Source: an uncultured delta proteobacterium
Lineage (GTDB): Bacteria; Myxococcota_A; Polyangia; Polyangiales; Polyangiaceae
Assembly (NCBI GenBank): GCA_963775185.1
Contig: CAVZIE010000032.1
Span: 502,705-566,704 of the forward strand
Direction: 5' to 3'
Length of the DNA stretch: 64,000 bases
A program made the position numbers and the translations under genes. The notes beneath the pieces are model-generated. The model saw only the letters and a list, made by a program, of their open reading frames with translations, made no database searches and was not told where the DNA came from. Every line of letters begins with the position of its first letter. Position 1 is the stretch's first letter. Of this stretch, positions 19,638 to 59,883 are shown in pieces.

Positions 19638-21978
19638 CTACTCCGCGGCGACTTCCTTCTTCGCGCGCACGGCGCGCAGCGCGCGCAGCACCTTGCCCGC
19701 CGTGAACGGCAGCTCGGTGAGTCGAATACCGACCGCGTCGAAGATCGCGTTGCTCACCGCCGGCAAGACCGGATGCAGCGGGCCTTCGCCGGCCTCCTTC
19801 GCACCGTACGGGCCCTCGGGATCGATGCTCTCGACGATCTCCGAGTGGATCTCGGGGGTGTCGAGCGTGGTCGGCAAGCGGTAGTCCAGGAGCGACGGGC
19901 CGATGTGGAGGCCGCGTTTGTCGACGGCGTGCTCTTCCAGCACGATCTCGCCGGCGCCCATGTAGACGCTGCCCTGGATCTGGCCGTGTACCAGCACCGG
20001 GTTGATCGCGCGGCCGCAGTCGTGGGCGACCCAGACGTGCTTGATGTCGATGACGCCGGTCTCCGCGTCGACCTCGACCTCCGCGATGTGGGCGGTGAAC
20101 GAATAAGCCGGCGACGCGCCGATGGCGCCGCCGCGGTAGCCTTGGCCGAGAGCCGGCGTGTTGTACGCGCCGGTCGAGCCCAGCGTGTCGAAGCGCTCCT
20201 CGGCGATCCGGAACGCGTCGCGGGTGATCATGCGACGCTCGCCGCCGATCTCGATGGCTTCGCCCCCGTGGAGCACGACCTTGTCCTCCGGCACATCCCA
20301 CGCCTCGGCGACGGCCTTGACGACGATGCGGCGCAGCTTGCGCGCGGCGTCGATGGTGGCGTTGCCGACCATGAACGTGACGCGGCTCGAGTACGCCCCG
20401 AGAATCGACCGGGCACAAGTCCGTGTCCGCTGCGACGACGCGCACGTCCTCGGGCAGCATGCCCAGCTCCTCCGCCACGATCACGCGCACGACCGTGCTC
20501 GACCCCTGGCCGATGTCGTTGCCGCCGGTGAACGCCGTCACCAGGCCGGACCGGTCGACCTTCAGCTGGATGCCGGCTTGCGGCATCTTGTTCGGGTAGA
20601 TCGGGTAGTTCGTGCCGGAGATGTACATCGAGCCCGCGACGCCGATGCCGCGACCGAACGGCAGCTTGCCGTGGCGCTTCTTCCAGTCGCTCGAGCGCTC
20701 GACCGCTTCCAGACACTCCATGAAGCCACTCGAGGTGATGCGCTGGTCGTTGACCGTGCGGGTGTACGCGCCCTGGTAGTTCTTGCGGCGGATCTCGATG
20801 GGATCCATGCCGAGCTTCTCGGCGATCTGGTCGAGCTGGATCTCGAAGGCGAAGCGCGGCTGTACCGATCCGTGACCGCGCTTCGGCCCGCACGGCGGCT
20901 TGTTCGTGAAGACCCGCGTCGAGTCGAAGCGGTAGGTCGGAAAGTCGTAGGGTCCCGTGAGCAGCTGGCCGGCGTAGTAGGTCGTCACCAGGCCGTAGGA
21001 GCTGTACGCGCCGCCGTCGATGACGATGCGCGCGTCCACGCCCGTCAGCCGCCCGTCCCGGGTCGCGCCGCTCTTGTAGCGCATCTTCATCGGGTGCCGG
21101 CCGCGGTGCGCGTAGAAGATCTCCTCGCGCGTCCACAGCATCTTCACCGGGCGCCCCGTCAGCATCGCGAGCTTCGCGACGCAGAACTCGAGCGCGAACG
21201 GATCGGATTTTCCGCCGAACGCGCCGCCGAGCGTGGGCTGGATCACGCGCACGCGCGACTCCGGCAGCTCCAGCACGCGGGCGAGCGCGCGGTGCACGTA
21301 GTGCGTGATCTGCGTCGAGGACCACACCGTGAGCACGCCGTCCGCGCCGTACTGCGCGACGGCGCAGTGAGGCTCCATCGCCGCGTGGGTCGTGCCGTGG
21401 AACGAGTACTCGCCCTCCACCACGACGTCGGCGCCGTCGATCGCGGCGTCGACCTCGCCGAACTCCAGGTGCACGTGCTTCGAGATGTTACCGTGCTTGC
21501 CGTTCTCGGGGATTGCCGGTTCGGCGCGGGACAAGGCCTCGTCCGGGTCGAGATGGGCCTCGAGGATCGCGTATTCGACCTGGATCAGCTCCAGCGCGTC
21601 GATGGCCGTGTCCTCGTCGAGGGCCGCGATCGCGGCGACGGGCTCGCCGACGTAGCGCACCTTGTCCACGGCGAGCGCCGTCTCGTCCTCGGTCCAGGGC
21701 AGGATGCCGAATTTTATCGGCAGATCGGTGCCGACGATGATCGCGAGCACCCCGGGCAGCGCGCGGGCGCGGCTGGTGTCGATGGACTTGATGATCGCGT
21801 GCGGATGCGGGCTGCGCAGCAGCTTCGAGTGCAGCATGCCCGGCAGCTGGATGTCGTCGGTGTAGATCGCCGTGCCGGTCGCCTTGCCGAGGCCGTCGAC
21901 CTTGCGCTGCGCCTTGCCAACGACCGTGAAGTCCTTGCCCCAGGGCGCGCCGGGCCCGTGCTGGTCACGCGCTGCCAT
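19638..21978 (-). CDS. xanthine dehydrogenase family molybdopterin-binding subunit, apparent frameshift near 20395
   Basis: N-terminal 530 aa of ORF 19594..22092 (MAARDQHG...DTDLCPVDS) continue in ORF 19638..20372 (SRVTFMVGNATIDAARKL...). GGGAGG RBS; the start overlaps the small-subunit stop (TGATG). Confidence 0.8.
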
Positions 21979-22565
21979 CAGATCCTCCCTGATGGGGGGC
22001 CTTGGCCCCCCGCAGCTTGCTTCGCAACTGCTCCCCCCGCCGCCTGCGTCGGGCTCGCTTTGCTCGCGGTCGTCGATACTTCCGGGTGGCACAGCTGCGC
22101 GACCAACTCGACCGCTTCGATGATCTGCGTGTAGCCCGTGCAGCGACAGAGGTTGCCGGCGAGCGCTTCCTTGATCTGGTCACGCGTCGGGGAGGGGTGT
22201 TTCCGGAGCAGCGCCTTCGTGCTCAGCATCATGCCGGGCTGGCAGAAGCCGCACTGGAGCGCGCCGGTGCGTTCGAACGCGTCCTGGATCGGGTCGGCAC
22301 CGGACCCCCCGATACCGCGATGCGCCGGCATCAAACCCTCGATGGTGGTCACCTCGTGGCCCTCGGCGAGCGCGGCGAGGGTCAGACAGCTCATCACCGG
22401 CTCGCCGTCGAGCAGCACGGTGCACGCACCGCAGTCGCCCTTGTCGCAGCCTTGCTTCGAGCCGGTCAGGCCGAGCTTGTAGCGAAGCACCTCGAGCAAC
22501 GTGAAGTGATCCGGGGCGGCGACCTCGAGGGGATCGCCGTTGACTCGCAGGGACAGGATGCGCAC
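21978..22565 (-). CDS. xanthine dehydrogenase family [2Fe-2S] small subunit
   Basis: Both 2Fe-2S motifs present (CDKGDCGACTV; CGFCQPG...CRCTGY). The 3' end reads in frame through the copy of the roughly 65-bp repeat element. Confidence 0.8.
   Translation of the reverse strand: MRILSLRVNGDPLEVAAPDHFTLLEVLRYKLGLTGSKQGCDKGDCGACTVLLDGEPVMSCLTLAALAEGHEVTTIEGLMPAHRGIGGSGADPIQDAFERTGALQCGFCQPGMMLSTKALLRKHPSPTRDQIKEALAGNLCRCTGYTQIIEAVELVAQLCHPEVSTTASKASPTQAAGGAVAKQAAGGQGPPSGRI
21994..22060 (+). repeat. roughly 65-bp structured repeat element, copy A (GGGGGGCCTTGGCCCCCC hairpin + GCAGCTTGCTTCGCAACTGCTCCCCCCGCCGCCTGCG.CGGGCTCGCT)
   Basis: Near-identical to 45063..45128. The perfect 8-bp stem differs from copy B by a compensatory base pair. 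Lies inside the 3' end of the 2Fe-2S subunit ORF. Confidence 0.65.
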
Positions 22566-22685: not shown

Positions 22686-23987
22686 ATGAAGCGGGGCTTT
22701 CTTCTGGGTATCGCAGCTCTCGGGGTGGCGGTCGGGTGCGGCGGAACGAGCTTCGACGCGTCCAATCCCGACGGCGGCAAGGACGGGAGCGCGGCGAGCT
22801 CGGGCAGCGGCGGTAGTGGCGGCGGCGCCAGCGGCACGGGCGGCAGCTCGGGGACCGGCGCGAGCGGCGGCAGCTCGGGCGCTGGGGGCTCGGGCGGCAC
22901 CGCCGCGACCGGTGGCAGCGGCGGAACGTCGGGCAGCGGCGGAACGTCGGGCAGTGGCGGAACCGGCGGAACGTCGGGCAGCGGCGGAACGGCGGGCAGT
23001 GGCGGAACCGGCGGAACGTCGGGCAGCGGCGGAACGGCGGGCAGTGGCGGAACCGGTGGAACGTCGGGCAGCGGCGGAACGTCGGGCAGCGGCGGAGCGT
23101 CGGGCAGCGGCGGCAGCGGCGGAACCGGTGGAACGGCGGGCAGCGGCGGAACGGCGGGCAGCGGCGGAACCGGCGGAACGGCGGGCAGCGGCGGAGCGGC
23201 GGGCAGCGGCGGAACCGGCGGAACGGCGGGCGCCGCCGGCGCCGGCGGCGGCTGTAACTCGACCACGTGCCCGTTCACGTGCTGCAACGACAAGTGCGTC
23301 AACACGGACAACGACATCTACAACTGCGGCGGCTGCGGAACGAAGTGCACAGGCGCGTTTCCCTACTGCAACAACGGGCACTGCGGCACCGCGCCGTGCA
23401 ACGGCAAGACGTGCTCGAACAACCTGTGCTGCGGCGACACCTGCTGCGACGTCGGCGACATCTGCTGCACGTATACGCAAAACTTCACCATCACGACCTG
23501 CGTCACGCCCACCGCGGGCGGTACCTGTCCGGTTGGTTGCGTCGGCTGCGTGTGCGCGTCCCCGGACACGCCGATCGCGACCCCGTCGGGTGATCGCCCG
23601 ATGGCGTCGCTGCACGAGGGCGATCTCGTCTACAGCGTCGACCGCGGTCGCGTGGTTGCCGTGCCGCTGATCGCCACGCGCTCGGTGCCGACCCACAACC
23701 ACTTCGTGATGCGCGTCGAGCTCGAGACCGGCGCGGTGCTCGAGATCAGCGCCGAGCACCCGACCACCGACGGCCGTATGTTCGGTGAGCTTGCGCGCGG
23801 GCAACTGCTCGACGGCGTGCGCATCACCGACGTCCGCCCAGAGCCGTACAAGCACGACGCGACGTACGACATCCTGCCCAACTCGGACACCGGCGCGTAC
23901 TTCGCCGGCGGCGTGCTCATCGGCAGTACGATGACGACCACCGGCAAGCGTGTGACCGCGCCAACCGCGCCGATCTCGCGCGAGTAG
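22686..23987 (+). CDS. lipoprotein with Gly/Ser/Thr linker, Cys-rich module and C-terminal Hint (intein-like) domain
   Basis: Lipobox LGVAVGC and about 190 aa of GSGGTGGT tandem repeats. Hint N-terminal motif C-V-C-A-S-P-D-T-P-I-A-T-P-S-G...GDLVYS. Confidence 0.6.
   Translation: MKRGFLLGIAALGVAVGCGGTSFDASNPDGGKDGSAASSGSGGSGGGASGTGGSSGTGASGGSSGAGGSGGTAATGGSGGTSGSGGTSGSGGTGGTSGSGGTAGSGGTGGTSGSGGTAGSGGTGGTSGSGGTSGSGGASGSGGSGGTGGTAGSGGTAGSGGTGGTAGSGGAAGSGGTGGTAGAAGAGGGCNSTTCPFTCCNDKCVNTDNDIYNCGGCGTKCTGAFPYCNNGHCGTAPCNGKTCSNNLCCGDTCCDVGDICCTYTQNFTITTCVTPTAGGTCPVGCVGCVCASPDTPIATPSGDRPMASLHEGDLVYSVDRGRVVAVPLIATRSVPTHNHFVMRVELETGAVLEISAEHPTTDGRMFGELARGQLLDGVRITDVRPEPYKHDATYDILPNSDTGAYFAGGVLIGSTMTTTGKRVTAPTAPISRE
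22800..23230 (+). repeat. coding tandem repeat (roughly 45-bp units encoding GGTSGSGGTAGSGGT)
   Basis: Near-perfect nucleotide-level repeats within the Hint-domain lipoprotein linker. Confidence 0.6.
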
Positions 23988-30602: not shown

Positions 30603-30918
30603 ACACCGCCATCCCACCCCGCACAGTGCGATCGTAGCACGCGCTTCCGTGCCGAACCGGCAACCAGCCGGCGCTACTCCAGGCGGTAGCCGGAGAGCGA
30701 CTCGCAGTTGATCGGCCCGGCTTCGCTGCATCGCGTGGGTTGCCCGTAGCAGTCGGGACGCCACTCGCACCCGCCGGTGCAATCGCGCTCGGCGACGACG
30801 AGGCCGTCGAGCACATCTGGCTCACGCCCGCGGAAGCCGAGCGCGCCGAGCGCCGCGCCGTCGAAGCACGGGGTGCGCGAGCTCGAAGGCAAGCTGGGAC
30901 AAGCGAAGTAGGGGAGGG

Positions 30919-30939
30919 TTGCCGGTCCGGCGCGGAACC
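30919..30939 (-). repeat. 21-bp GC-rich element copy (ttgccggtccggcgcggaacc)
   Basis: Intergenic, repeat-dense region 30640..31100. Confidence 0.7.
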
Positions 30940-30963
30940 GCGCGGGCAGTCCGCCGGCACTGG

Positions 30964-33741: not shown

Positions 33742-35019
33742 ATGAGCCGCCTTCGACTGCTACCCCTCGCGGCGCGCGTGATCGAGAACCCGTTCGGACG
33801 CGGTTGGCACGCAGCTGCGCGCCGGCTCGGCGCGGTCGACGCGCGCGCGGAGCTGTCGGCGCTGGCGCGCACGCCGGCCGACGCGGAGATCGTGCTGCTC
33901 GGCGTGCTCCACGTCGCCTCGCGGCGCGACCCGGAGGCGGCGCACCGAATCGCCTCGCGCGTTCCGCGCACCGTCGCCGAGCGGCTGCCACGCCCGGTCC
34001 CGGCGTACCTGCGGATGGCGCTGGCCGCCGGCCGTTGCTGGACGGCGCTGGCGTCGCTGCACGGCGACTCGCCGGCGATGCAAGACGTCCGGCGCCGGAC
34101 ATGGAGCGCGTGCTTCGGCCAGTCGCTGCTGCGCGCGATCGAGCTCGAGCGCGTGATCCGCGATCACGACGTGCTGATCACGGGCGAGACGGGCACCGGC
34201 AAGGAAGCCGTGGCGACCGCCATCCAGTCGGGCACGCCGGGGGACGCCACGGGCTCGCCCGCACCGAGCGCAGCGCTCAACGCCGCGGCGATACCGGAGC
34301 CGCTGGTCGAGAGCGAGCTGTTCGGGCACGTGCGCGGCGCGTTCACCGGCGCCACCAGCGATCGCCCAGGGCGCCTGCGCTCGGCGGCCGGCGGCTGCTT
34401 CTTCCTCGACGAGGTGGGCGATCTGCCGCCGACGGCGCAGGCCAAGCTCTTGCGCGTGATGGAGACGAACCGCGTGAGCCCGGTCGGATCGGATCGCGAG
34501 AGTGACGCGGATGTTCGCTACGTTGCCGCGACGCACCGCGATCTCGACGCGATGGTCGAGGCCGGCGCGTTCCGCCGCGATCTGCAGCAACGCCTGGCCG
34601 GGGTCGTGATCGCGATCCCGCCGCTCCGCGACCGGCCGGAGGACATCGCCGCCATCGGGATGGCGTTCGTCGCCGGACAGGTGCCGGGTGATCATCGCCA
34701 TATCGCCCGCTTCCTCGCCAGCGACGCCGCGCGCCGCTACGCGTGGCCGGGCAACGTGCGCGAGCTCGACAACGCGCTCCGCAACCTGATGCTCGGGCTC
34801 GAGCCGGGCATCGCGGACGCGACGCGGGGTTCCGCGCCGAACCGGCATTCCCAGCCAGAGGACGTCGATCCGCGGGTGGCCGCGGGCACGGCGACGCTGG
34901 GCGAGACCACGGCCTGGTACGTGCGGCGCGCGCTCGAGGCGCACGACGGCAACATGGCCGCCACCGCGCGCGCGCTCGGCGTCGATCGCGCGACGGTGAA
35001 GCGCCACGCCGCGGGGTGA
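33742..35019 (+). CDS. sigma-54-dependent transcriptional activator (AAA+ enhancer-binding protein)
   Basis: Walker A GETGTGKE, the GAFTGA loop (HVRGAFTGA), an arginine finger and a C-terminal HTH. No receiver domain. Confidence 0.8.
   Translation: MSRLRLLPLAARVIENPFGRGWHAAARRLGAVDARAELSALARTPADAEIVLLGVLHVASRRDPEAAHRIASRVPRTVAERLPRPVPAYLRMALAAGRCWTALASLHGDSPAMQDVRRRTWSACFGQSLLRAIELERVIRDHDVLITGETGTGKEAVATAIQSGTPGDATGSPAPSAALNAAAIPEPLVESELFGHVRGAFTGATSDRPGRLRSAAGGCFFLDEVGDLPPTAQAKLLRVMETNRVSPVGSDRESDADVRYVAATHRDLDAMVEAGAFRRDLQQRLAGVVIAIPPLRDRPEDIAAIGMAFVAGQVPGDHRHIARFLASDAARRYAWPGNVRELDNALRNLMLGLEPGIADATRGSAPNRHSQPEDVDPRVAAGTATLGETTAWYVRRALEAHDGNMAATARALGVDRATVKRHAAG
34828..34847 (+). repeat. 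degenerate 21-bp element copy inside the sigma-54 activator gene (ggttccgcgccgaaccggca)
   Basis: One mismatch; lies in the linker coding region between the AAA+ and HTH domains. Confidence 0.45.
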
Positions 35020-43718: not shown

Positions 43719-44972
43719 CTACGGGCCGACGTTGCTCGTGCTGCCGGACACCAGCGCGCCGACGAAGTCCGGCAGCGTCGTGCCGCTCACGGTCGTCCCG
43801 TAGAACGATGCGTTGTCGCCGATCCAGGTGTGGTGCGAGCACGGCGTGTCCGCGCACTGGGCGATGTAGTAGCTGCCGAAATTCGTGTAGGCCTTCATCT
43901 GGTCCCGGAGATCGAGCAGCCCCTGCTGGTACTGCTGGGCGCTCAACTGGCCGAAGCTGCAGTTGTTCTGGCCGAACGCCAGGAACGTCCGGATCGTCCC
44001 GTCCGCGACGCTCGAGACGAGCGCCAGCTTGCGCTGGGGATACTTCGTGGCCGCGTACGCCAGCAGGTCGGACAGGTAGTTCGACTTGTCCTGGCAGTGG
44101 CTGCCGCAGGCCTTGAGGATCGTGTCGTCCATGCCCCACAGCGTGCGGATCTGGTCCTGCAGACACGGCGGGATGTAGGTCGTGCCCATCGGCGGTCCGG
44201 AGTCGTCGAGCAAGTCGACGGGTACAGACGCGAAGTACTCCTGGGTCTGCAGGTAGTTCGCCGCCGAGCCGAAGCCGCCGGCGCTCGCGCCCGTCAGCAG
44301 CACCTGCGTCGCCGCGGGGAACGTCGGCACGATCCGGTCCAGATACTGCGTCATGTTCGAATAGCCGACGAACTGCTGCGTGCCGGCGACGCTGGGGACG
44401 CTGCCGGCCGCGTTGTCGCCGGCGTGCACGTCGCCCGTGCAATAGGGGACGTAGACGTAGTTCCAGTCCTTGAGCGGGTTCTGGGCCTGGCTGCGATCGA
44501 AGATGCCGGCGAGCGACCCCTTGCGCGAGTTGAAGTCGCTCTCGCCGAACGTCGACGGGTTGACGCCGCACGTCACGGAGTTGAAGCACGCGCCGCCGCC
44601 CTCGAGATAGATGGCGACCTTGGTCGAGGCGCTGTTCAGGTTCACGCCGATGCCGGTGGTGGATCCGTCGCGACAGTGCGCGCCCGCGAACGGCACCCAG
44701 GTCCAGGCGTTGTCGGCGGCGCTGATCGGCTGCCCCGTCGCGGGCGAGCCGGCGCTTCCGGCCGCGCCGCTCGCGCCGGCGCTTCCAGCCGCGCCGGCGC
44801 TTCCGGCCGCGCCCGCAGCGCTGCCCGCGCTGCCGCCGGTTCCCGCCGCACCGGCGCCGCCCCCGCTACCTCCCGCGGCGGGACTGCCGGTGTCGTCGCT
44901 GCCGCCGCACGCGGCCAGCAGGGTGGGGACGACGCACAGGGAGCCAAGAGCGAACCAGGAAGCGATGCGCAT
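43719..44972 (-). CDS. pectin-acetylesterase/Notum-like esterase lipoprotein
   Basis: Lipobox and Gly/Ala/Ser linker; YLEGGGAC and LTGASAGGFGS serine-esterase motifs. Confidence 0.5.
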   Translation of the reverse strand: MRIASWFALGSLCVVPTLLAACGGSDDTGSPAAGGSGGGAGAAGTGGSAGSAAGAAGSAGAAGSAGASGAAGSAGSPATGQPISAADNAWTWVPFAGAHCRDGSTTGIGVNLNSASTKVAIYLEGGGACFNSVTCGVNPSTFGESDFNSRKGSLAGIFDRSQAQNPLKDWNYVYVPYCTGDVHAGDNAAGSVPSVAGTQQFVGYSNMTQYLDRIVPTFPAATQVLLTGASAGGFGSAANYLQTQEYFASVPVDLLDDSGPPMGTTYIPPCLQDQIRTLWGMDDTILKACGSHCQDKSNYLSDLLAYAATKYPQRKLALVSSVADGTIRTFLAFGQNNCSFGQLSAQQYQQGLLDLRDQMKAYTNFGSYYIAQCADTPCSHHTWIGDNASFYGTTVSGTTLPDFVGALVSGSTSNVGP

Positions 44973-45062
44973 GGCGTTTGCGTAACGGCCCGGCGCGCCG
45001 CCTGCAAGAGCGGGCCGCGCATTTGGTGAGGCGGTGTAGGGAAGACGCCGGGCTCAGTCCTC

Positions 45063-45128
45063 GGGGGGTCTTGACCCCCCGCAGCTTGCTTCGCAACTGC
45101 TCCCCCCGCCGCCTGCGGCGGGCTCGCT
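45063..45128 (+). repeat. roughly 65-bp structured repeat element, copy B (GGGGGGTCTTGACCCCCC hairpin + conserved tail)
   Basis: Intergenic between the uvrA stop and the esterase gene start. Confidence 0.65.
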
Positions 45129-45164
45129 CCGCTCGCTTCGAGCGTGAGCAATGCTCACGCTCTT

Positions 45165-48075
<2,911 letters not shown>

Positions 48076-53301: not shown

Positions 53302-55398
53302 ATGCGTTGGCGAATCGTGCTCGGGGGGGCGCTGGTGATCGCGGCGACCACCGCCGGCTGCGGCGGCGACGGTGAAAGCACGGCGGGCGCCGGGGGAACG
53401 AGTGGCGCGGCGGCAGCCGGGGCGGCGGCCGGAGACGGCGGCGGCGCCGCCGGTTGGCCGGGTTCCGGCGGTGCAGGCGGCAGCGCCGGTACGAGCGGCA
53501 GCGCCGGCACGAGCGGCGGCGCCGGCACGAGCGGCGGCGCCGGCACGAGCGGCAGCGCCGGCACGAGCGCGTGCGATCCGGGCGGCGCGACCGGCGCCGT
53601 CGGTGGCCCGCCGGCAGACTGGAGCTGGGATCCGTGCTCCGCGCCGCCGCCGGCTGGTTACAACGTCATCCAGGGTACGAGCGGCCCGGACAACTTGACC
53701 GGTACCGCGGGCAACGACTTCATCATCGGCGGCGACGGCGACGACACGATCCACGCGCTCGGCGGCGACGACATCGTGTGCGGCGGCAACGGCGAGGACA
53801 CGATCTACGGCGGCGCCGGCAACGACTTTATCGACGGCGGGGCGCACAACGACGTGATCTTCGGCGACGACGGCAACCTGACCGGCGGCGGCGACGACGT
53901 GATCTTCGGCCGCGCCGGCAGCGACACCATCCACGGCGAGGGCGGCAACGACCGGATCTACGGCGGCATCCTCGACGACACGCTGTACGGCGACGATGGC
54001 GACGACCTGATCATCGGCGGGCACGGCAGCGACCACATGCATGGCGGCGCCGGCAACGATTGGCTGCGTGGCGACACGGGGCGCGACGAGTTCGTCGGCG
54101 GCGCGGGGCAAGACACGGCGAGCTTCGCGACCGCGACGCCGCCAGGGCAGGGCGGGGGCGTGGACGGCGTCGCCGTCGACACCAACGCGATCTACGACTA
54201 CGCCGAGATCAAGGCGCTCAACCAGACCAACGTGAAGGCCGGCCGGGCCCAGGGCGACGGCACACCGGAACCGCTGGTCGGGATCGAGGAGGTCGTGGGC
54301 TCGCCGTTCTCCGACAGCTTCACCGGGCCGGGTACGTTCGCGAGCGGCTACGGCGACAGCGTGTGCTCGCCGCTGACGTTGCCCTACGTCTTCGTGGACG
54401 CCCGCAAGGCCGCGGCGTCGGCCATCACCGACGTCGGGCTGGTCGTGCTCGGCAGCAAGGGCGACGACGATCTGACGCTCTCCGCAGCGAACGGCAGCGT
54501 GGTAGTGACCGCCAACAACGGCGCGACGCTCGCGGCGGGCCCGAACTGCGCGTCCACGCAGCCGAACGTGGTCACGTGCGCGATCCCCGCGACCTTGAGC
54601 TACGTGCTGGCGTGGGGTGACGATGGCAACGACCGCATCACCATGGGCACGACCGGGTGGCCAAACGTCATGACCGCCACGCTCGACGGCGGTCCGGGTG
54701 ACGACGTGCTCGTCGGCAGCCGGGGCGAGGACGTGATGCTCGCCGGCGAGACCGGCCACGACGAGCTGCACGGCGGCGACGGGGACGACGCGCTGATCAG
54801 CGAGGCCGTGAACGGCAACACCGACGGCGACAAGCTGTACGGCGAGGGCGGCAACGACCAGCTCGTGACGGACTACCCGTGCGGCGGCCACTACTACAGC
54901 GGCGGACCGGGCATCGACATCGCAGGCTTCGCCCGCGCCGGCAACCTGCCGATCCGCGCGCAGCTCGCGGGCGCCGCGAGCAATCAGGCCGCCTACGACG
55001 GCCACGCGCTCAGCTACAACTCGAGCACCGGGACGAACGACTGCGGCCAGGCGTCGTGGACGACCTTCGACCCCGCCGGCGATCTCGAGGTGCTCGAGGG
55101 CGCGGCGGGCAACGACGAGCTCTGGGGCAACAACGACCGCAACATCATCTGGGGACGCGACGGCGACGACAAGATCTGGGGGCTCGACGGCAACGACGAG
55201 CTCTGGGGCGACACGGGCAACGACACGATCTACGCAGGCATCGGCGCGGACACCGTCTACGGCGGCGACGGCGTCGACCACATCTACGCCAAGGACGGCG
55301 AGAAGGACCGGAGCTTGAGCTGCGGCGCCGGTGGCGGCGTGCTCGAGACGTACGACAGCGTGGATCTCTCGATCCAGAGCGGTTGCACCTATCAATAG
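53302..55398 (+). CDS. RTX (hemolysin-type) calcium-binding repeat lipoprotein
   Basis: Lipobox TAGC; many GGxGxDxxx nonapeptide repeats (GGDGDDTIHALGGDDIVCGGNGEDTIYGGAGNDFIDGG...). Confidence 0.65.
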   Translation: MRWRIVLGGALVIAATTAGCGGDGESTAGAGGTSGAAAAGAAAGDGGGAAGWPGSGGAGGSAGTSGSAGTSGGAGTSGGAGTSGSAGTSACDPGGATGAVGGPPADWSWDPCSAPPPAGYNVIQGTSGPDNLTGTAGNDFIIGGDGDDTIHALGGDDIVCGGNGEDTIYGGAGNDFIDGGAHNDVIFGDDGNLTGGGDDVIFGRAGSDTIHGEGGNDRIYGGILDDTLYGDDGDDLIIGGHGSDHMHGGAGNDWLRGDTGRDEFVGGAGQDTASFATATPPGQGGGVDGVAVDTNAIYDYAEIKALNQTNVKAGRAQGDGTPEPLVGIEEVVGSPFSDSFTGPGTFASGYGDSVCSPLTLPYVFVDARKAAASAITDVGLVVLGSKGDDDLTLSAANGSVVVTANNGATLAAGPNCASTQPNVVTCAIPATLSYVLAWGDDGNDRITMGTTGWPNVMTATLDGGPGDDVLVGSRGEDVMLAGETGHDELHGGDGDDALISEAVNGNTDGDKLYGEGGNDQLVTDYPCGGHYYSGGPGIDIAGFARAGNLPIRAQLAGAASNQAAYDGHALSYNSSTGTNDCGQASWTTFDPAGDLEVLEGAAGNDELWGNNDRNIIWGRDGDDKIWGLDGNDELWGDTGNDTIYAGIGADTVYGGDGVDHIYAKDGEKDRSLSCGAGGGVLETYDSVDLSIQSGCTYQ

Positions 55399-55416
55399 CG
55401 ACGCCGGGATCCCGAG

Positions 55417-55437
55417 GTTCCGCGCCGGACCGGCAAA
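55417..55437 (+). repeat. 21-bp GC-rich element copy (ggttccgcgccggaccggcaa)
   Basis: Between the RTX gene stop and the giant Cys-rich protein gene start. Confidence 0.7.
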
Positions 55438-55554
55438 CCAGCGGCCTGGATGTGGATCGCGGCGGGACCATAGGGAAATGCAACGGCGGTCCGGGCCCGT
55501 TGACGCGGGGCCCGGGAGCGCCGAGACTGCGTCCCGTTGCTGCCGAGGGCCCCC

Positions 55555-58500
55555 ATGCGTAGAGTCGTCGTACTATTGTCCGCGCTCTTCGCGCTTTGCC
55601 TCGCGGCGAAGGCGCGCGCCGACAACACCGCGGTGTTGCACCCGGTCGCGGATACATCGATCTGGAGCGAGAACCAGAACTCGGACGGCGCCGGTACGTC
55701 GCTGTTCATGGGCAAGTCGAACGGCGGCGCCATCCGCCGGATCTTGATCCGCTTCGATCTCTCGACGATCCCCGCCGGATCCACGATCACCGGCGCGTCG
55801 ATGACGATGAACGTGACGAAGGTGCCCGACACCGCGCCGATCACCGCCTACGCGTACATGTACCGGGTCACGCAGCCCTGGGGCGAGAGCTCGTCGAACG
55901 CCGCCACCGGCACCGGTGCCGCGCCGGCGACGAACGACGCGACGTGGAGCTACCGCTATTATTCTTCCACGGGCTGGAGCACCGCCGGCGGCTCGAACAC
56001 CGCCACCGGATCGGCCTGGGGTTACGCCGGCTACGGCTATATCAACGGCACGCTCGGCGTGAAGACGTTCTACATCAACGCCACGGACATCTCGCACTTC
56101 GTCAATGGCACGTACGCGAACTACGGCTGGCTGATCGTCGACGAGAGCGCGAACAAGACGGCCCGCAAGTACGACTCGCGCACCGGCGGGACGCCCCCGA
56201 CGCTGACGATCACCTACAAGTACCCGCAAGGGCATTCGTGCGCGGCGGGGAGCCAGTGCTCGACGGGATATTGCACCAACGGCGCCTGCTGCAACGTCAA
56301 CGCGTGTTCCGCTGCTGGCGAGTGCTACACCGCCGGCACCTGCCAGGTCGGTTCGGGCACCTGTTCCAACCCGCCGAAGAGCAACGGCGTGGCGTGCTCC
56401 AGCGACGGCAACAACTGCACGGTCGACCAATGCAACGGCTCCGGCGCCTGCACCCACCCCGCCGGCAACAGCGGCGCCGCGTGCCCCGACGACGGCAACG
56501 AGTGCACCAGCGACACGTGCAACGGCGTGAGCACGGCATGCCAGCACCCGAACAAGGGTTCCGGCACCGCGTGTACGGCCGACAGCGACCCGTGCACGCT
56601 CGACCAGTGCAACGGCTCCGGCGCTTGCACCCACCCGGCGGGCAACAACGGCGCCGTGTGCAACGACGGCGACGCCTGCACGCTGACCGACAAGTGCGCT
56701 GCCGGCGTCTGCGCCGGGACGCCGATCGTCTGCACCGCAAGCGATCAGTGCCACGTGGCCGGCACGTGCAGCGGCGGCACCTGCTCGAATCCGCCGGCCC
56801 CGCTCGGGACGGGCTGCACGGCGGACTCGAACCCGTGCACGCTCGACCAGTGCAACGGCTCCGGCGCTTGCACCCACCCGGCGGGCAACGCCGGCGCCCA
56901 GTGCAGCGGCCCCAGCTGCGCGTGCGGCGGCGGCGGTTGCACGGCGACCCTCGCGTCTACCTGCAACGGCAGCTCCACGAGCTGCCCGGCGGCGTCGCAG
57001 GTGAGCTGCGGCGGCGCGTTGTGCAGCGGCAACGTGTGTGCGGGCGGCTGCGGCGTGGATACGGATTGCCTGAGTGGGTACTTCTGCCTCGGCGGCGCGT
57101 GCACGGCCAAATACGCCAACGGCGTCGTCTGCGGCGGGTCCAACTACTGCAGCAGCGGGAACTGCGTCGACAACTACTGCTGCAACACGGCGTGCGCCGG
57201 TGGCGGCAGCGATTGCCAGGCGTGCAACGTCGCAGGCAAGCATGGCACGTGCTCGCCGATCCCGGCGAACACCCTGTGCCGCGCGGCTGCTTCCGGCGGC
57301 TGCGACGCGAACGACTACTGCAACGGGTCGAGCAGCGCATGCACCGACGTCAAGCAAGCGGCAGGGTCGACGTGTCGCGCGTCCGCCGGGAGCTGCGACA
57401 TCGTGGAGACGTGTGACGGCAGCTCCAACAACTGCCCCGGGGACAGCTTCAAGAACTCGAGCACGAGTTGCCGCGCCGCGACCTGCACGGCGGGCGTCCA
57501 GACGAACCCGGCCAGCTGCCCCGGCAACGGCGCCCAGTGCCCCGCGATCGTCACGAAGAACTGTGCGCCCTACGTGTGCGGCGCTACGGCGTGCAAGACG
57601 TCCTGCTCCGGCGACGGCGATTGCTCCACCGGCAACTGGTGCGACGCCGGGACTTGCGTTGCCAAGTACAGCAACGGCGTCGCCTGTGGCGCCTCGAACT
57701 CGTGCCAGTCCGCTCACTGCGTCGACGGCGTGTGCTGCAACCAGGCGTGCAGCGGCCAATGCCAGGCCTGCGACGTCCAGGGCAGCACCGGCACGTGCAC
57801 CGCCGTGAACGGCGACCCGCACGGGACGCGCGCCGCGTGTGCCTCCGACGGCAGCGTGTGCTCGGGCGCGTGCAACGGCAGCCTGACCACGGCCTGTACC
57901 TATCCGGGCAGCTCGACCTCGTGCCGCGCCGCCAGCTGCACCAGCGGCGTGGCGACCGTAGCGGCGAGCTGCCAGGGAGCGGGCACGTGCCCCGCGAAGC
58001 AGACGGTGACCTGCGACCCGTTCGTGTGCGGCGCGACGGCGTGTCTCGGCAACTGTGCGGGTGACGTGGACTGCATCGCCGGCGACTACTGCGCCGGCGG
58101 TGTGTGCAAGCCGCGTATCGACGCCGGCCAGGCGTGCGCGGCCGACCACGAGTGCAACAGCCAGTACTGCGTGGATGGCGTGTGCTGCAACACCAGCTGC
58201 AAGGGCCAGTGCGAGGCGTGCGACGTCTCGGGGAGCGCGGGCACGTGTACGGCGGTCAACGGCGCGCCGCACGGCCCACGTCCGGCGTGCATCGGCGATG
58301 GTTCGACGTGCGACGGCGTGTGCGACGGCAGCAACACGTCGTCGTGCGCCTATCCCGGCGCCGGCAAGGTGTGCCGACAAGCGAGCTGCACCACCGGGAC
58401 GGCGACGCTGATCGCCTTCTGCAACGGGACGGGCGTGTGCCCGCCGTTGCAGCAGCAGGCGTGCGCACCGTTCACGTGCGGCACGACGATGTGCGCCGGC

Positions 58501-59883
58501 GAGTGCCAGGTCGACGGCGACTGCGGGTTCGACGAGTTCTGTTCGGGCGGTCTGTGCAAGCAGCGGCTGGACAACGGCCAGGCCTGCGACGGCGACGTGC
58601 AGTGCAAGAGCAGCCTGTGCGTCGACGGCTCGTGCTGCAACGAAGCGTGCACCGGCCAGTGCGAGGCGTGCGACGTCCCCGGCAAGCTGGGCACGTGCTC
58701 GGCGGTGGTCGGCAATCCAGAGGGCGTCCGGGCGCCGTGCAACAGCGACGGAAGCGCGTGCGGCGGAAGCTGCGACGGCATCGCCCGCACCGGTTGCACC
58801 TACCCGGGGGCGGCGACGGCCTGCCGCGCCGCGGCCTGTAGCAGCAACGTGGCGGTCCTCGGGGCAAGCTGCAACGGCACGGGCTCGTGTCCGCCGGCGC
58901 TGGGCGTCTCCTGCACGCCGAAGACGTGCTCCGGAACGAAGTGCGGCGGCGGGTGTTCCGCGGACACCGACTGCGCGACGGGCAAGTTCTGCGCGGCCGG
59001 CGTGTGCATCACGAAGAGCGCGCAAGGCGATCAGTGCGACCAGGACTCCCAGTGCCAGAGCGGTCACTGCGTGGACAATTTCTGCTGCGACGTCGCGTGC
59101 AGCGGCCAGTGCCAGGCGTGTGACGTGCCGCCGTCGCTCGGCACGTGCACGACGCTGAAGAGCGGTCAGCCGCACGGCGGGCGTCCCGCGTGCTCGGGCA
59201 CCGGGCTCTGCGTTGGAACCTGCGACGGCACCAGCGCCACGGCGTGCACGCTGCCCGACTCGACGGTGACGTGCGGCGCCGCCGCCTGCACCGGCGGCGT
59301 CGTGGTGTCGGCGGCGGCGTGCAACGGCGCGGGCGTCTGCCTGCCGCCCGCGTTCACGAACTGCGCGCCGTACGCTTGCTCGGGCACCAGCTGCCTGTCG
59401 TCCTGCACGGCGGCCAGCGACTGCGCGCTCGGCTACGACTGCGTGGGCGGAGCGTGCGTTCCGGCCACGACGACGGACGCGGGGGCGGCGGGCGCTGCCG
59501 GCGCGGCGGGCGCTGCCGGTGCGGCGGGCGCTGCCGACGCGGGCCTGGACGGCAGCGCCGGCAGCACGCTCGACGCCAGCGCCGGAGCGAGTGGCAGCTC
59601 CGGGAGCTCCGGAACGGGCGGCACCGGCGGAACCTCGGGTAGCGGCGGCACCGGCGGAACCGGCGCTACGACAGGCGGCACCGGCGGCACCGGCGGCACG
59701 GGTGTCGATGCCGGACCGGACGCCGGCAAGACCGGCGGCGCCGCCGACGACGGCAGCTGCGGCTGCCGCGCGCCGGGACGCGGCAGTCCCGGCGGCGGAG
59801 GGGTCGCCCTGTTCGGCCTGCTCGGCGCGGTCGCGATCGCATCGCGCCGCCGTCGGCGTCGCCGCGACGCGCGCGCAGCATGA
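55555..59883 (+). CDS. giant secreted protein: DNRLRE-like N-terminal domain, seven Cys-rich repeats, MYXO-CTERM tail
   Basis: Signal peptide, DNRLRE-like beta-sandwich, seven roughly 95-aa repeats (...CVDGVCCN..C.GQC.ACDV.G..GTC..V.G.PHG.R..C..DGS.C.G.CDG...) and C-terminal DGSCGCRAPGRGS...ALFGLLGAVAIASRRRRRRR. Confidence 0.65.
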   Translation: MRRVVVLLSALFALCLAAKARADNTAVLHPVADTSIWSENQNSDGAGTSLFMGKSNGGAIRRILIRFDLSTIPAGSTITGASMTMNVTKVPDTAPITAYAYMYRVTQPWGESSSNAATGTGAAPATNDATWSYRYYSSTGWSTAGGSNTATGSAWGYAGYGYINGTLGVKTFYINATDISHFVNGTYANYGWLIVDESANKTARKYDSRTGGTPPTLTITYKYPQGHSCAAGSQCSTGYCTNGACCNVNACSAAGECYTAGTCQVGSGTCSNPPKSNGVACSSDGNNCTVDQCNGSGACTHPAGNSGAACPDDGNECTSDTCNGVSTACQHPNKGSGTACTADSDPCTLDQCNGSGACTHPAGNNGAVCNDGDACTLTDKCAAGVCAGTPIVCTASDQCHVAGTCSGGTCSNPPAPLGTGCTADSNPCTLDQCNGSGACTHPAGNAGAQCSGPSCACGGGGCTATLASTCNGSSTSCPAASQVSCGGALCSGNVCAGGCGVDTDCLSGYFCLGGACTAKYANGVVCGGSNYCSSGNCVDNYCCNTACAGGGSDCQACNVAGKHGTCSPIPANTLCRAAASGGCDANDYCNGSSSACTDVKQAAGSTCRASAGSCDIVETCDGSSNNCPGDSFKNSSTSCRAATCTAGVQTNPASCPGNGAQCPAIVTKNCAPYVCGATACKTSCSGDGDCSTGNWCDAGTCVAKYSNGVACGASNSCQSAHCVDGVCCNQACSGQCQACDVQGSTGTCTAVNGDPHGTRAACASDGSVCSGACNGSLTTACTYPGSSTSCRAASCTSGVATVAASCQGAGTCPAKQTVTCDPFVCGATACLGNCAGDVDCIAGDYCAGGVCKPRIDAGQACAADHECNSQYCVDGVCCNTSCKGQCEACDVSGSAGTCTAVNGAPHGPRPACIGDGSTCDGVCDGSNTSSCAYPGAGKVCRQASCTTGTATLIAFCNGTGVCPPLQQQACAPFTCGTTMCAGECQVDGDCGFDEFCSGGLCKQRLDNGQACDGDVQCKSSLCVDGSCCNEACTGQCEACDVPGKLGTCSAVVGNPEGVRAPCNSDGSACGGSCDGIARTGCTYPGAATACRAAACSSNVAVLGASCNGTGSCPPALGVSCTPKTCSGTKCGGGCSADTDCATGKFCAAGVCITKSAQGDQCDQDSQCQSGHCVDNFCCDVACSGQCQACDVPPSLGTCTTLKSGQPHGGRPACSGTGLCVGTCDGTSATACTLPDSTVTCGAAACTGGVVVSAAACNGAGVCLPPAFTNCAPYACSGTSCLSSCTAASDCALGYDCVGGACVPATTTDAGAAGAAGAAGAAGAAGAADAGLDGSAGSTLDASAGASGSSGSSGTGGTGGTSGSGGTGGTGATTGGTGGTGGTGVDAGPDAGKTGGAADDGSCGCRAPGRGSPGGGGVALFGLLGAVAIASRRRRRRRDARAA

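Follow-up and report, generated by a model that had tools for sequence, protein, structure and literature searches.

Most of the small interspersed repeats on record come from enterobacteria, pseudomonads, neisseriae, mycobacteria, rickettsiae and pneumococci. The defining mark of repetitive extragenic palindromic (REP) sequences is a tetranucleotide, GTAG or CGTC, conserved at one palindrome end (PMC3733652), and regularly spaced REPs in alternating orientation make up bacterial interspersed mosaic elements (BIMEs; PMC2817692). Mycobacterial interspersed repetitive units (MIRUs), as summarized in PMC3184786 (citing Supply 1997), are intercistronic units of 40-100 bp whose open reading frames (ORFs) overlap the adjacent genes and whose sites are filled or empty in different relatives. 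According to the same source, filled MIRU sites are flanked by tetranucleotide direct repeats (PMC3184786). It is also established that genes can survive the in-frame fusion of a palindromic repeat, or the extension of the gene’s 3′ end by one (PMC10969869, PMC3184786). Here we describe a repeat that occurs twice in a 64,000-nt stretch (hereafter the window) of contig CAVZIE010000032.1, positions 502,705 to 566,704, from an uncultured delta proteobacterium of the Polyangiaceae (GCA_963775185.1). One copy (copy A) lies within the 3′ end of a 2Fe-2S small-subunit gene, and the other (copy B) lies between genes, next to uvrA. We consider it likely that both copies belong to an undescribed family of modular REP/MIRU-like repeats of Polyangiaceae-type myxobacteria, with copy A as a tolerated, stop-free, in-frame insertion. 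Full-text literature searches returned no report of such repeats in myxobacteria or Sorangium, and myxobacteria go unmentioned in a survey of tagged REPs. Having found no description of such small repeats for Polyangiaceae, we regard the family as new and the kind of element as known.

The two copies form a 74-nt direct repeat, with copy A at 21994-22067 and copy B at 45063-45136, both on the plus strand, at 93% identity and with five differences. A 33-nt core has exactly two occurrences there (0 expected from 100 shuffles of the window), and a covariance model of the family recovered only copies A and B in the window, at 89.2 and 87.4 bits, the runner-up reaching 14.5 bits. Copy A consists of hairpin 1 (GGGGGGCC-TT-GGCCCCCC, 21994-22011), hairpin 2 (GCAG-C-TTGC-TTC-GCAA-CTGC, 22012-22031), a C-run TCCCCCC (22032-22038), hairpin 3 with one C.T mismatch (22036-22053) and a distal GCTCGC-TTT-GCTCGC (22054-22067), all on the plus strand. 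The core of copy B has the same modules on the same strand: hairpin 1 (GGGGGGTC-TT-GACCCCCC, 45063-45080), hairpin 2 (45081-45100), the C-run (45101-45107), a perfect hairpin 3 (45105-45122) and a distal GCTCGC-TCC-GCTCGC (45123-45136).

An earlier note on this DNA, made from its letters, had described two near-identical copies, each opening with a perfect 8-bp stem around a TT loop in which a C:G pair of copy A is replaced by T:A in copy B. Both the near-identity and the compensatory change were confirmed: two of the five differences (22000 C and 22005 G in copy A, 45069 T and 45074 A in copy B) together make up a single hairpin-1 pair. The hairpin was likewise confirmed, with its dimensions revised, as it folds in effect into 7 bp closed by a 4-nt CTTG loop. 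The third difference (22050 T in copy A versus 45119 G in copy B) costs copy A one hairpin-3 pair, and the remaining two are TT at 22061-22062 versus CC at 45130-45131. Either strand of the window copies folds into the same stacked hairpins.

Copy A is read on the minus strand as in-frame residues 167-191 (ASKASPTQAAGGAVAKQAAGGQGPP) of the 195-aa 2Fe-2S small subunit (21978-22565, minus strand; identical to P0001), in agreement with the position given in the earlier note. The recognizable domains of the subunit are Fer2 (residues 7-60) and Fer2_2 (residues 74-153), so that the latter stops before the residues encoded by copy A. Only 4 nt separate the end of the repeat from the operon junction (21976-21989, minus strand). 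There, the ribosome-binding site (RBS) GGGAGG (21989-21984) is followed by a TGATG overlap of the small-subunit stop TGA (21980-21978) and the large-subunit ATG (21978-21976). The molybdopterin large-subunit gene (19638-21978, minus strand) encodes Ald_Xan_dh_C, MoCoBD_1 and MoCoBD_2 domains and has a +1 frameshift near 20403.

The closest small-subunit homologue, P0002 from the Polyangiaceae metagenome-assembled genome (MAG) CK_flocs7 (GCA_035063585.1), shares 83% amino acid identity, is only 163 aa long and ends in ...AARTTKGAS / ...IIEAVELAARTTKGAS. In the DNA alignment with this orthologue, the window is longer by exactly 96 nt (32 codons), located between the conserved domain end and AGGGAG..TGATGG. 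These 32 codons past the orthologue’s end include copy A. The TGATG junction onto the large subunit is kept at the empty site of CK_flocs7 (AGGGAGCGAGCTGATGG), and the covariance model found no element copy in the 10.5-kb orthologous locus (L016), though the CK_flocs7 genome is rich in copies. The tails of more distant small-subunit homologues are variable and unrelated to that of the window. From these alignments we infer a lineage-specific insertion of copy A where the two subunit genes join. A C-terminal extension shared by orthologous subunits, which had been raised earlier as the mark of ordinary coding sequence, was not what the comparison returned.

Several features would explain why such an insertion is tolerated: a stop-free core, a gain that is a multiple of three, a low-complexity tail lying beyond Fer2_2, and an intact RBS and TGATG coupling. 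Stop codons are present in none of the six frames of the element core. Because homologue tails are variable and unrelated, and because Fer2_2 ends at residue 153, the site itself appears permissive. By our own estimate, a random 96-nt insert at 71% GC would be in frame and open roughly one time in five, so the in-frame read-through of copy A needs no special explanation. A six-frame peptide search of the element against 5.8 billion protein clusters returned the window subunit P0001 as the sole genuine fusion, and the other matches were spurious ORFs called over arrays of sister subfamilies. On the copy A mRNA, the hairpins fold just upstream of a free RBS, and the most likely effect of the insertion is neutral, namely a disordered Ala/Gly/Pro/Gln tail on the subunit. 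The empty site in the closest orthologue thus favours the idea of a small element tolerated inside a gene terminus; of exaptation, also suggested before, we found no evidence. Copy A has no clear target-site duplication (none beyond 3 nt), and the empty site and the element end share a 6-nt microhomology, GCGAGC.

The repeat also occurs well outside the window. A genome scan with one genome per species and the exact 20-nt hairpin 2 (GCAGCTTGCTTCGCAACTGC) returned 15 loci, of which seven were chance matches in coding sequence and eight were whole elements with flanking C-runs, giving a family core of CCCCCC-GCAGCTTGCTTCGCAACTGC-TCCCCCC. The eight whole-element loci come from three assemblies, six of them in CK_flocs7, one (L003) in an uncultured deltaproteobacterial MAG and one at L013. 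CK_flocs7 alone has at least 12 element copies, at its six loci. Its arrays run head-to-tail with periods of 70 and 74 nt, some of them at contig ends, and two copies at L008 lie 135 nt apart. A metagenome scan, whose pattern was too permissive and matched mostly coding ‘QLxxKL’-type sequences, added at least seven further true copies (L040, L064, L073, L080, L120, L131), four of them from one soil metagenome. Two of the spurious-ORF proteins led to L140 (at least eight copies in 19.7 kb) and L141, loci in which sister subfamilies occur. A covariance model built from 29 copies ultimately gave 36 copies in 18 sequence sources, so that the two copies first reported were an undercount and the proposed REP-like dispersed repeat is found at many unrelated loci and genomes. 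In BLAST comparisons of family loci with the window, the element was the only shared sequence, and across its copies and arrays it occurs in all frames. Taken together, these results establish a dispersed, modular, structure-conserving family with lineage-specific positions. A phage or plasmid origin was rejected, as viral contigs gave chance coding matches only and plasmids gave no match.

Three of these loci show peculiarities of their own. The L013 contig (DATIVM010000405.1, 2125 nt, 72% GC) is binned in a ‘Usitatibacter’ MAG and is probably mis-binned myxobacterial DNA. In the soil metagenome, L040 (1500-1669) and L080 (1-215) are about 97% identical over some 90 nt on the right-hand side of the element and wholly different on the left, a pattern suggestive of strain variation or of a rearrangement at the element. 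At L140 1-260, two converging element copies are joined in long poly-G/poly-C runs at a contig end, which looks like a repeat-caused assembly artefact.

The family unit is about 70-120 nt long, modular, GC-rich and multi-hairpin, and occurs singly or in head-to-tail arrays with a period of 70-80 nt. Optional left modules are of several types, among them one that is GCGACGTGAGGTGCGGCGTGGGATTGGTCTTGT-like, which neither window copy has, and another, GTGAYGAATSMYCAG. Hairpin 1 consists of G6-7 ... C6-7 around a variable inner stem and loop, and hairpin 2, with its bulged C, is followed by the single-stranded TCCCCCC. Next come a GC-rich, variable hairpin 3 and one or two small hairpins (GCTCGC-TTC-GCGAGC). 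Flanking modules are mosaic, some copies are truncated, and hairpin 1 is duplicated internally in L064 and L073.

The hairpins appear to be kept by compensatory changes across the family, as the structure-consistent covariation proposed from the window pair had implied. Hairpin 1, which lay outside every search pattern, has inner-pair variants CC/GG, TC/GA, TG...CA and C/G. In the sister subfamilies, the inner stem of hairpin 2 changes from TTGC/GCAA to TTCGCC/GGCGAA (two extra pairs) or to TCGC/GCGA. The outer stem changes from GCAG/CTGC to GCGG/CCGC, with a G.T intermediate. The model-fitted alignment, which is biased in the model’s favour and places the sister family’s longer hairpin 2 incorrectly, has 91.5% of its cells paired. 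In five pairs both sides have changed, whereas shuffles average 2.0 (five being attained in 2 of 500). Its covariation score of 0.110 compares with 0.041 for shuffles, none of the 500 reaching it, and with no more than 0.016 for slid partners. We regard these statistics as supportive rather than decisive, and pairing on both strands fits DNA hairpins equally well.

Copy B is bounded by the uvrA stop (45165-45167) on one side and by the start of the next gene (44972) on the other, which upholds its earlier placement in intergenic DNA downstream of uvrA. The uvrA gene is represented by its C-terminal 653 codons (45165-47126, minus strand), and its stop codon adjoins the right-hand module of copy B. 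Downstream of copy B is a lipoprotein gene with a pectinacetylesterase-family (PAE) domain (43719-44972, minus strand). The right-hand module (45137-45163, plus strand), which includes a hairpin GAGCGTGAGCA-A-TGCTCACGCTC at 45140-45162, is common to family copies in L013 and L064 and missing from copy A. On the other side, the L064 array has a left flank that 45049-45062 (GCTCAGTCCTC) matches, and 44986-45062 (plus strand) may be a degenerate left-hand module, with a weak similarity of about 72% to the left flank of the L140 copies. Thus, whereas copy A matches family members only from 21993/4 to about 22070, copy B does so over 45049-45169 and weakly back to 44986, a longer extent than first reported. 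If the left-hand module belongs to it, the element may occupy nearly the whole uvrA-PAE intergenic region.

A 7-nt direct repeat, TCAGTCC, stands on both sides of copy B (45053-45059 and 45164-45170), its right-hand occurrence containing the uvrA stop. The equivalent flanks are CTCAGTC/CTCACTC in L064 and TCATCAG/TCCTCAG in L013 (6/7 pairs). These flanks could reflect duplication of a preferred target site or be the terminal direct repeats of that subfamily; as different loci share the motif, it may belong to the element itself.

When genes were normalized to element orientation, every arrangement was found, and copies were mostly intergenic. The element is downstream of a gene in sense orientation at L040, L064, L073 and the L140 array, and in antisense orientation at copy B, L006 and L141. 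It lies between convergent genes at L013 and L140 8627-8812, and upstream of genes at L010, L012, L014, L080 and L003. In the window, the flanking genes of both copies are on the minus strand, so both copies, as written, are antisense to transcription. We found no terminator-like sites on either strand of 21600-22500 and 44600-45500 and no sigma-70 promoter consensus at the window copies, and on the transcribed strand AUCAGGGAGG or GAGGACUGAG comes after hairpin 1, with no U-tract. An intrinsic terminator or promoter was ruled out on the lack of consensus matches and of a U-tract, and a sigma-54 promoter was set aside by eye, the GG-to-GC spacing in TTGGCCCCCCGCAGCTTGC being 3 nt too long. Rfam 15 gave no match at the gathering threshold in the window and nothing relevant at E<=10 around copy B or at E<=1 in five family loci, and a known RNA family was accordingly discarded. 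Because orientations are mixed and neither a terminator or sigma-70 consensus nor an Rfam match is present, we favour a DNA-level repeat over a strand-specific RNA or terminator. The terminator or stability element suggested in the earlier note does not fit these findings, nor does it fit the location of copy A inside a coupled junction.

As to how such a repeat might disperse, we suggest, with low confidence, that it spreads as non-autonomous selfish DNA. Dispersal could be driven by a trans-acting enzyme of the REP/RAYT (REP-associated tyrosine transposase) or IS200/IS605 type working on single-stranded hairpins, by recombination between copies, or by both. By analogy with those systems, the bulged hairpin 2 and its invariant flanks would be the obvious recognition candidate. 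Arrays would then grow by slippage or unequal exchange.

Some observations weigh against a tolerated insertion of a mobile repeat. No transposase, clear target-site duplication or terminal inverted repeats were found; the transposase result covers the genes called in L016, L140 and L141, whole genomes not having been searched for RAYT. Mobility therefore rests on one filled/empty comparison and on the scattered distribution. The fold energies on the transcribed (minus) strand exceed those of shuffles by a modest margin only, with z-scores of -1.6 and -2.35. The window assembly contains at least two frameshifts, and the frame across the G/C homopolymers of copy A depends on this assembly. The 96-nt difference might instead be a deletion in the relative, which we judge unlikely from the alignments because the tail is absent from all other homologues. 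Finally, the core is about 90% identical across genomes and 33 nt of it are invariant, which is above the expectation for neutral junk and may point to a host function, although part of this invariance is ascertainment because the scans demanded exact matches.

Among the alternatives, the one that survives best is a strand-specific functional RNA, either a multicopy small RNA or a cis-acting terminator or mRNA stabilizer, with two hairpins, an anti-Shine-Dalgarno-like UCCCCCC and a terminal hairpin. Such an RNA would account for the compensatory changes in hairpins 1 and 2, for the invariant single-stranded TCCCCCC linker and for the many copies just past gene ends. In the CK_flocs7 copies, a T-rich TTGGTTTTG follows hairpin 3, and three G.T wobble intermediates (two in L140 hairpin 2 and one in L013 hairpin 3) are on the plus strand. 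However, one wobble, in the L131 copy, favours the opposite strand, and the window copies have neither the T-rich tail nor a promoter or terminator consensus. The occurrence of both orientations relative to flanking genes, of promoterless head-to-tail arrays, and of truncated, mosaic and internally duplicated copies is also difficult to reconcile with an RNA gene, as is the lack of an Rfam match. Termination at copy A, within a coupled operon junction, would moreover be polar. We therefore consider a functional RNA unlikely.

Conservation of the core is also an argument for a host-function DNA motif, in which the 33-nt core would bind a conserved protein (nucleoid, gyrase/IHF-like, or replication/segregation) and be kept by selection rather than by selfish spread. 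An identical core is present in at least six assemblies with differing flanking modules, and the between-genome identity of the closest copies (89-94%) is on a level with that of the window pair (93%). Set against this are the exact-match ascertainment already mentioned and the sister subfamilies, which alter hairpin 2 freely. Positions differ between genomes, the closest orthologous operon is without copy A, and selfish repeats typically show tandem arrays and copies that break assemblies, as here. A motif of this kind thus seems improbable. More broadly, we see a slim chance of a host or RNA function for the strongly conserved core. A bolder proposal would place the invariant 33-nt core (C6, bulged hairpin 2 and UC6) under purifying selection across Polyangiaceae, as the recognition hairpin of a new, untagged REP-transposase pair in Myxococcota or as a multicopy C-rich (anti-Shine-Dalgarno-like) small RNA or protein-binding site, with the junction copy co-opted to tune translational coupling or mRNA stability; this proposal we hold to be unlikely.

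Ordinary coding sequence, with a tail that always belonged to the 2Fe-2S subunit and copy B as a gene fragment strayed by local segmental duplication or gene conversion involving two loci only, could draw on the in-frame tail, on C-terminal extensions being common in homologues and on copy B being readable in the same frame (QAAGGAVAKQAAGGQ), but it is very improbable and in practice refuted by the element’s other loci (non-coding DNA of many unrelated loci and genomes, arrays, all frames) and by the empty-site alignment, the closest orthologue having no tail, homologue tails being unrelated, and the peptide occurring in no other real-domain protein among the clusters searched.

The window contains other features of note. 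The frameshift in the large-subunit gene results from an extra T (minus strand, GAT-T-CTC) at residue 525/526 relative to the CK_flocs7 orthologue, and is either a sequencing indel or the sign of a pseudogene. The uvrA gene is also split by a frameshift, at about 47127-47150 of the window, after ...PDSSLSLD, and the database protein P0127 is limited to 653 aa from the C terminus. Finding two frameshifts among so small a number of examined genes suggests that the assembly has indel errors, with decaying genes as the alternative. Immediately upstream of the small-subunit gene is a 433-aa ORF (22686-23987, plus strand) with a Gly/Ser/Thr-rich tract followed by a Cys-rich region and no Pfam match. 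It contains tandem 9/18-nt repeats at 22774-23277, and similar G/S/T-coding repeats are found at 53436-53561 and 59577-59684. Two further regions, 53656-55315 and 57681-59157, have 27-nt periodic repeats that by eye appear to encode GGxGxD-type (RTX-like) nonapeptides, together with 450-nt Cys-rich module repeats. At the level of sequence, the 27-nt and 450-nt repeats indicate large secreted repeat proteins in the window.

A second dispersed repeat, about 37 nt long with the core GGGGTTCCGCGCCGGACCGGCAA, is found at 356-392, 34815-34851 and 55403-55439 on the plus strand and inverted at 30916-30952. Two of its copies adjoin reverse-strand stop codons, and the copy at 34815 is apparently in frame, by eye in an inter-domain linker of a sigma-54-activator-type regulator. 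A weak copy, only 76% identical, lies at 45212-45248 inside the uvrA tail. We considered whether this repeat extends uvrA; the idea was weakened by the low identity of the copy and by the basic tails that UvrA homologues of the clade often have, and the match may be due to chance.

Polyangiaceae genomes are very large and difficult to assemble. The family described here breaks MAG assemblies, as seen in the arrays at contig ends. It also yields spurious ‘hypothetical proteins’ (P0121-P0124) and can lengthen real proteins, so its recognition improves annotation. In addition, it offers markers like variable-number tandem repeats, and it makes the insertion of a stop-free repeat into a translationally coupled junction accessible to study. 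Should there be a cognate enzyme, the REP/RAYT paradigm would extend to an untagged, multi-hairpin substrate.

We finally compared the family with known repeat classes. A CRISPR remnant, prompted by the 70-nt spacing, was ruled out because the whole period repeats near-identically without unique spacers. A miniature inverted-repeat transposable element was excluded by the lack of terminal inverted repeats, the left and right modules not being inverted copies of each other. Like REPs and BIMEs, the family consists of short GC-rich imperfect palindromes that are extragenic and multicopy, form mosaics with other motifs, often lie at gene 3′ ends and are conserved in sequence within a clade. A REP is a single imperfect palindrome of 20-40 bp; here the individual hairpins measure 18-20 nt and hairpin 2 is imperfect, with its bulged C, but the conserved unit strings three to four different ones together over about 70 nt. 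In the aligned copies no hairpin has a GTAG or CGTC beside it: the sequence in front of hairpin 1 varies, and hairpin 2 opens with paired GCAG. In contrast to BIMEs, all arrays (L012, L014, L015, L064, L140, L141) run head-to-tail in one direction.

The joining of a repeat in frame to a gene has parallels in Rickettsia palindromic elements (RPEs) and in the ERIC, BOX, SPRITE and RU-2/3 repeats. RPEs differ in being 105-146 bp long, AT-rich, Rickettsia-specific and often intragenic, while only one copy among about 36 is genic here. By description, BOX of Streptococcus pneumoniae is similar in having end modules around a repeatable middle, a variable module number and internal duplications, but its host is a low-GC Gram-positive. 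Unlike MIRUs, copy A has no clear flanking direct repeat, and copies of the Polyangiaceae family can face either way relative to genes, sit for the most part at 3′ ends or in 5′ regions rather than within operons, and belong to another host phylum. Even so, the functional resemblance, judged by description only, takes in GC-rich units of 40-100 bp, a high-GC genome, tens of copies, tandem arrays and translatability, and copy A at its TGATG junction behaves exactly like a MIRU at stop/start overlaps. By this analogy, MIRU is the functionally nearest known element.

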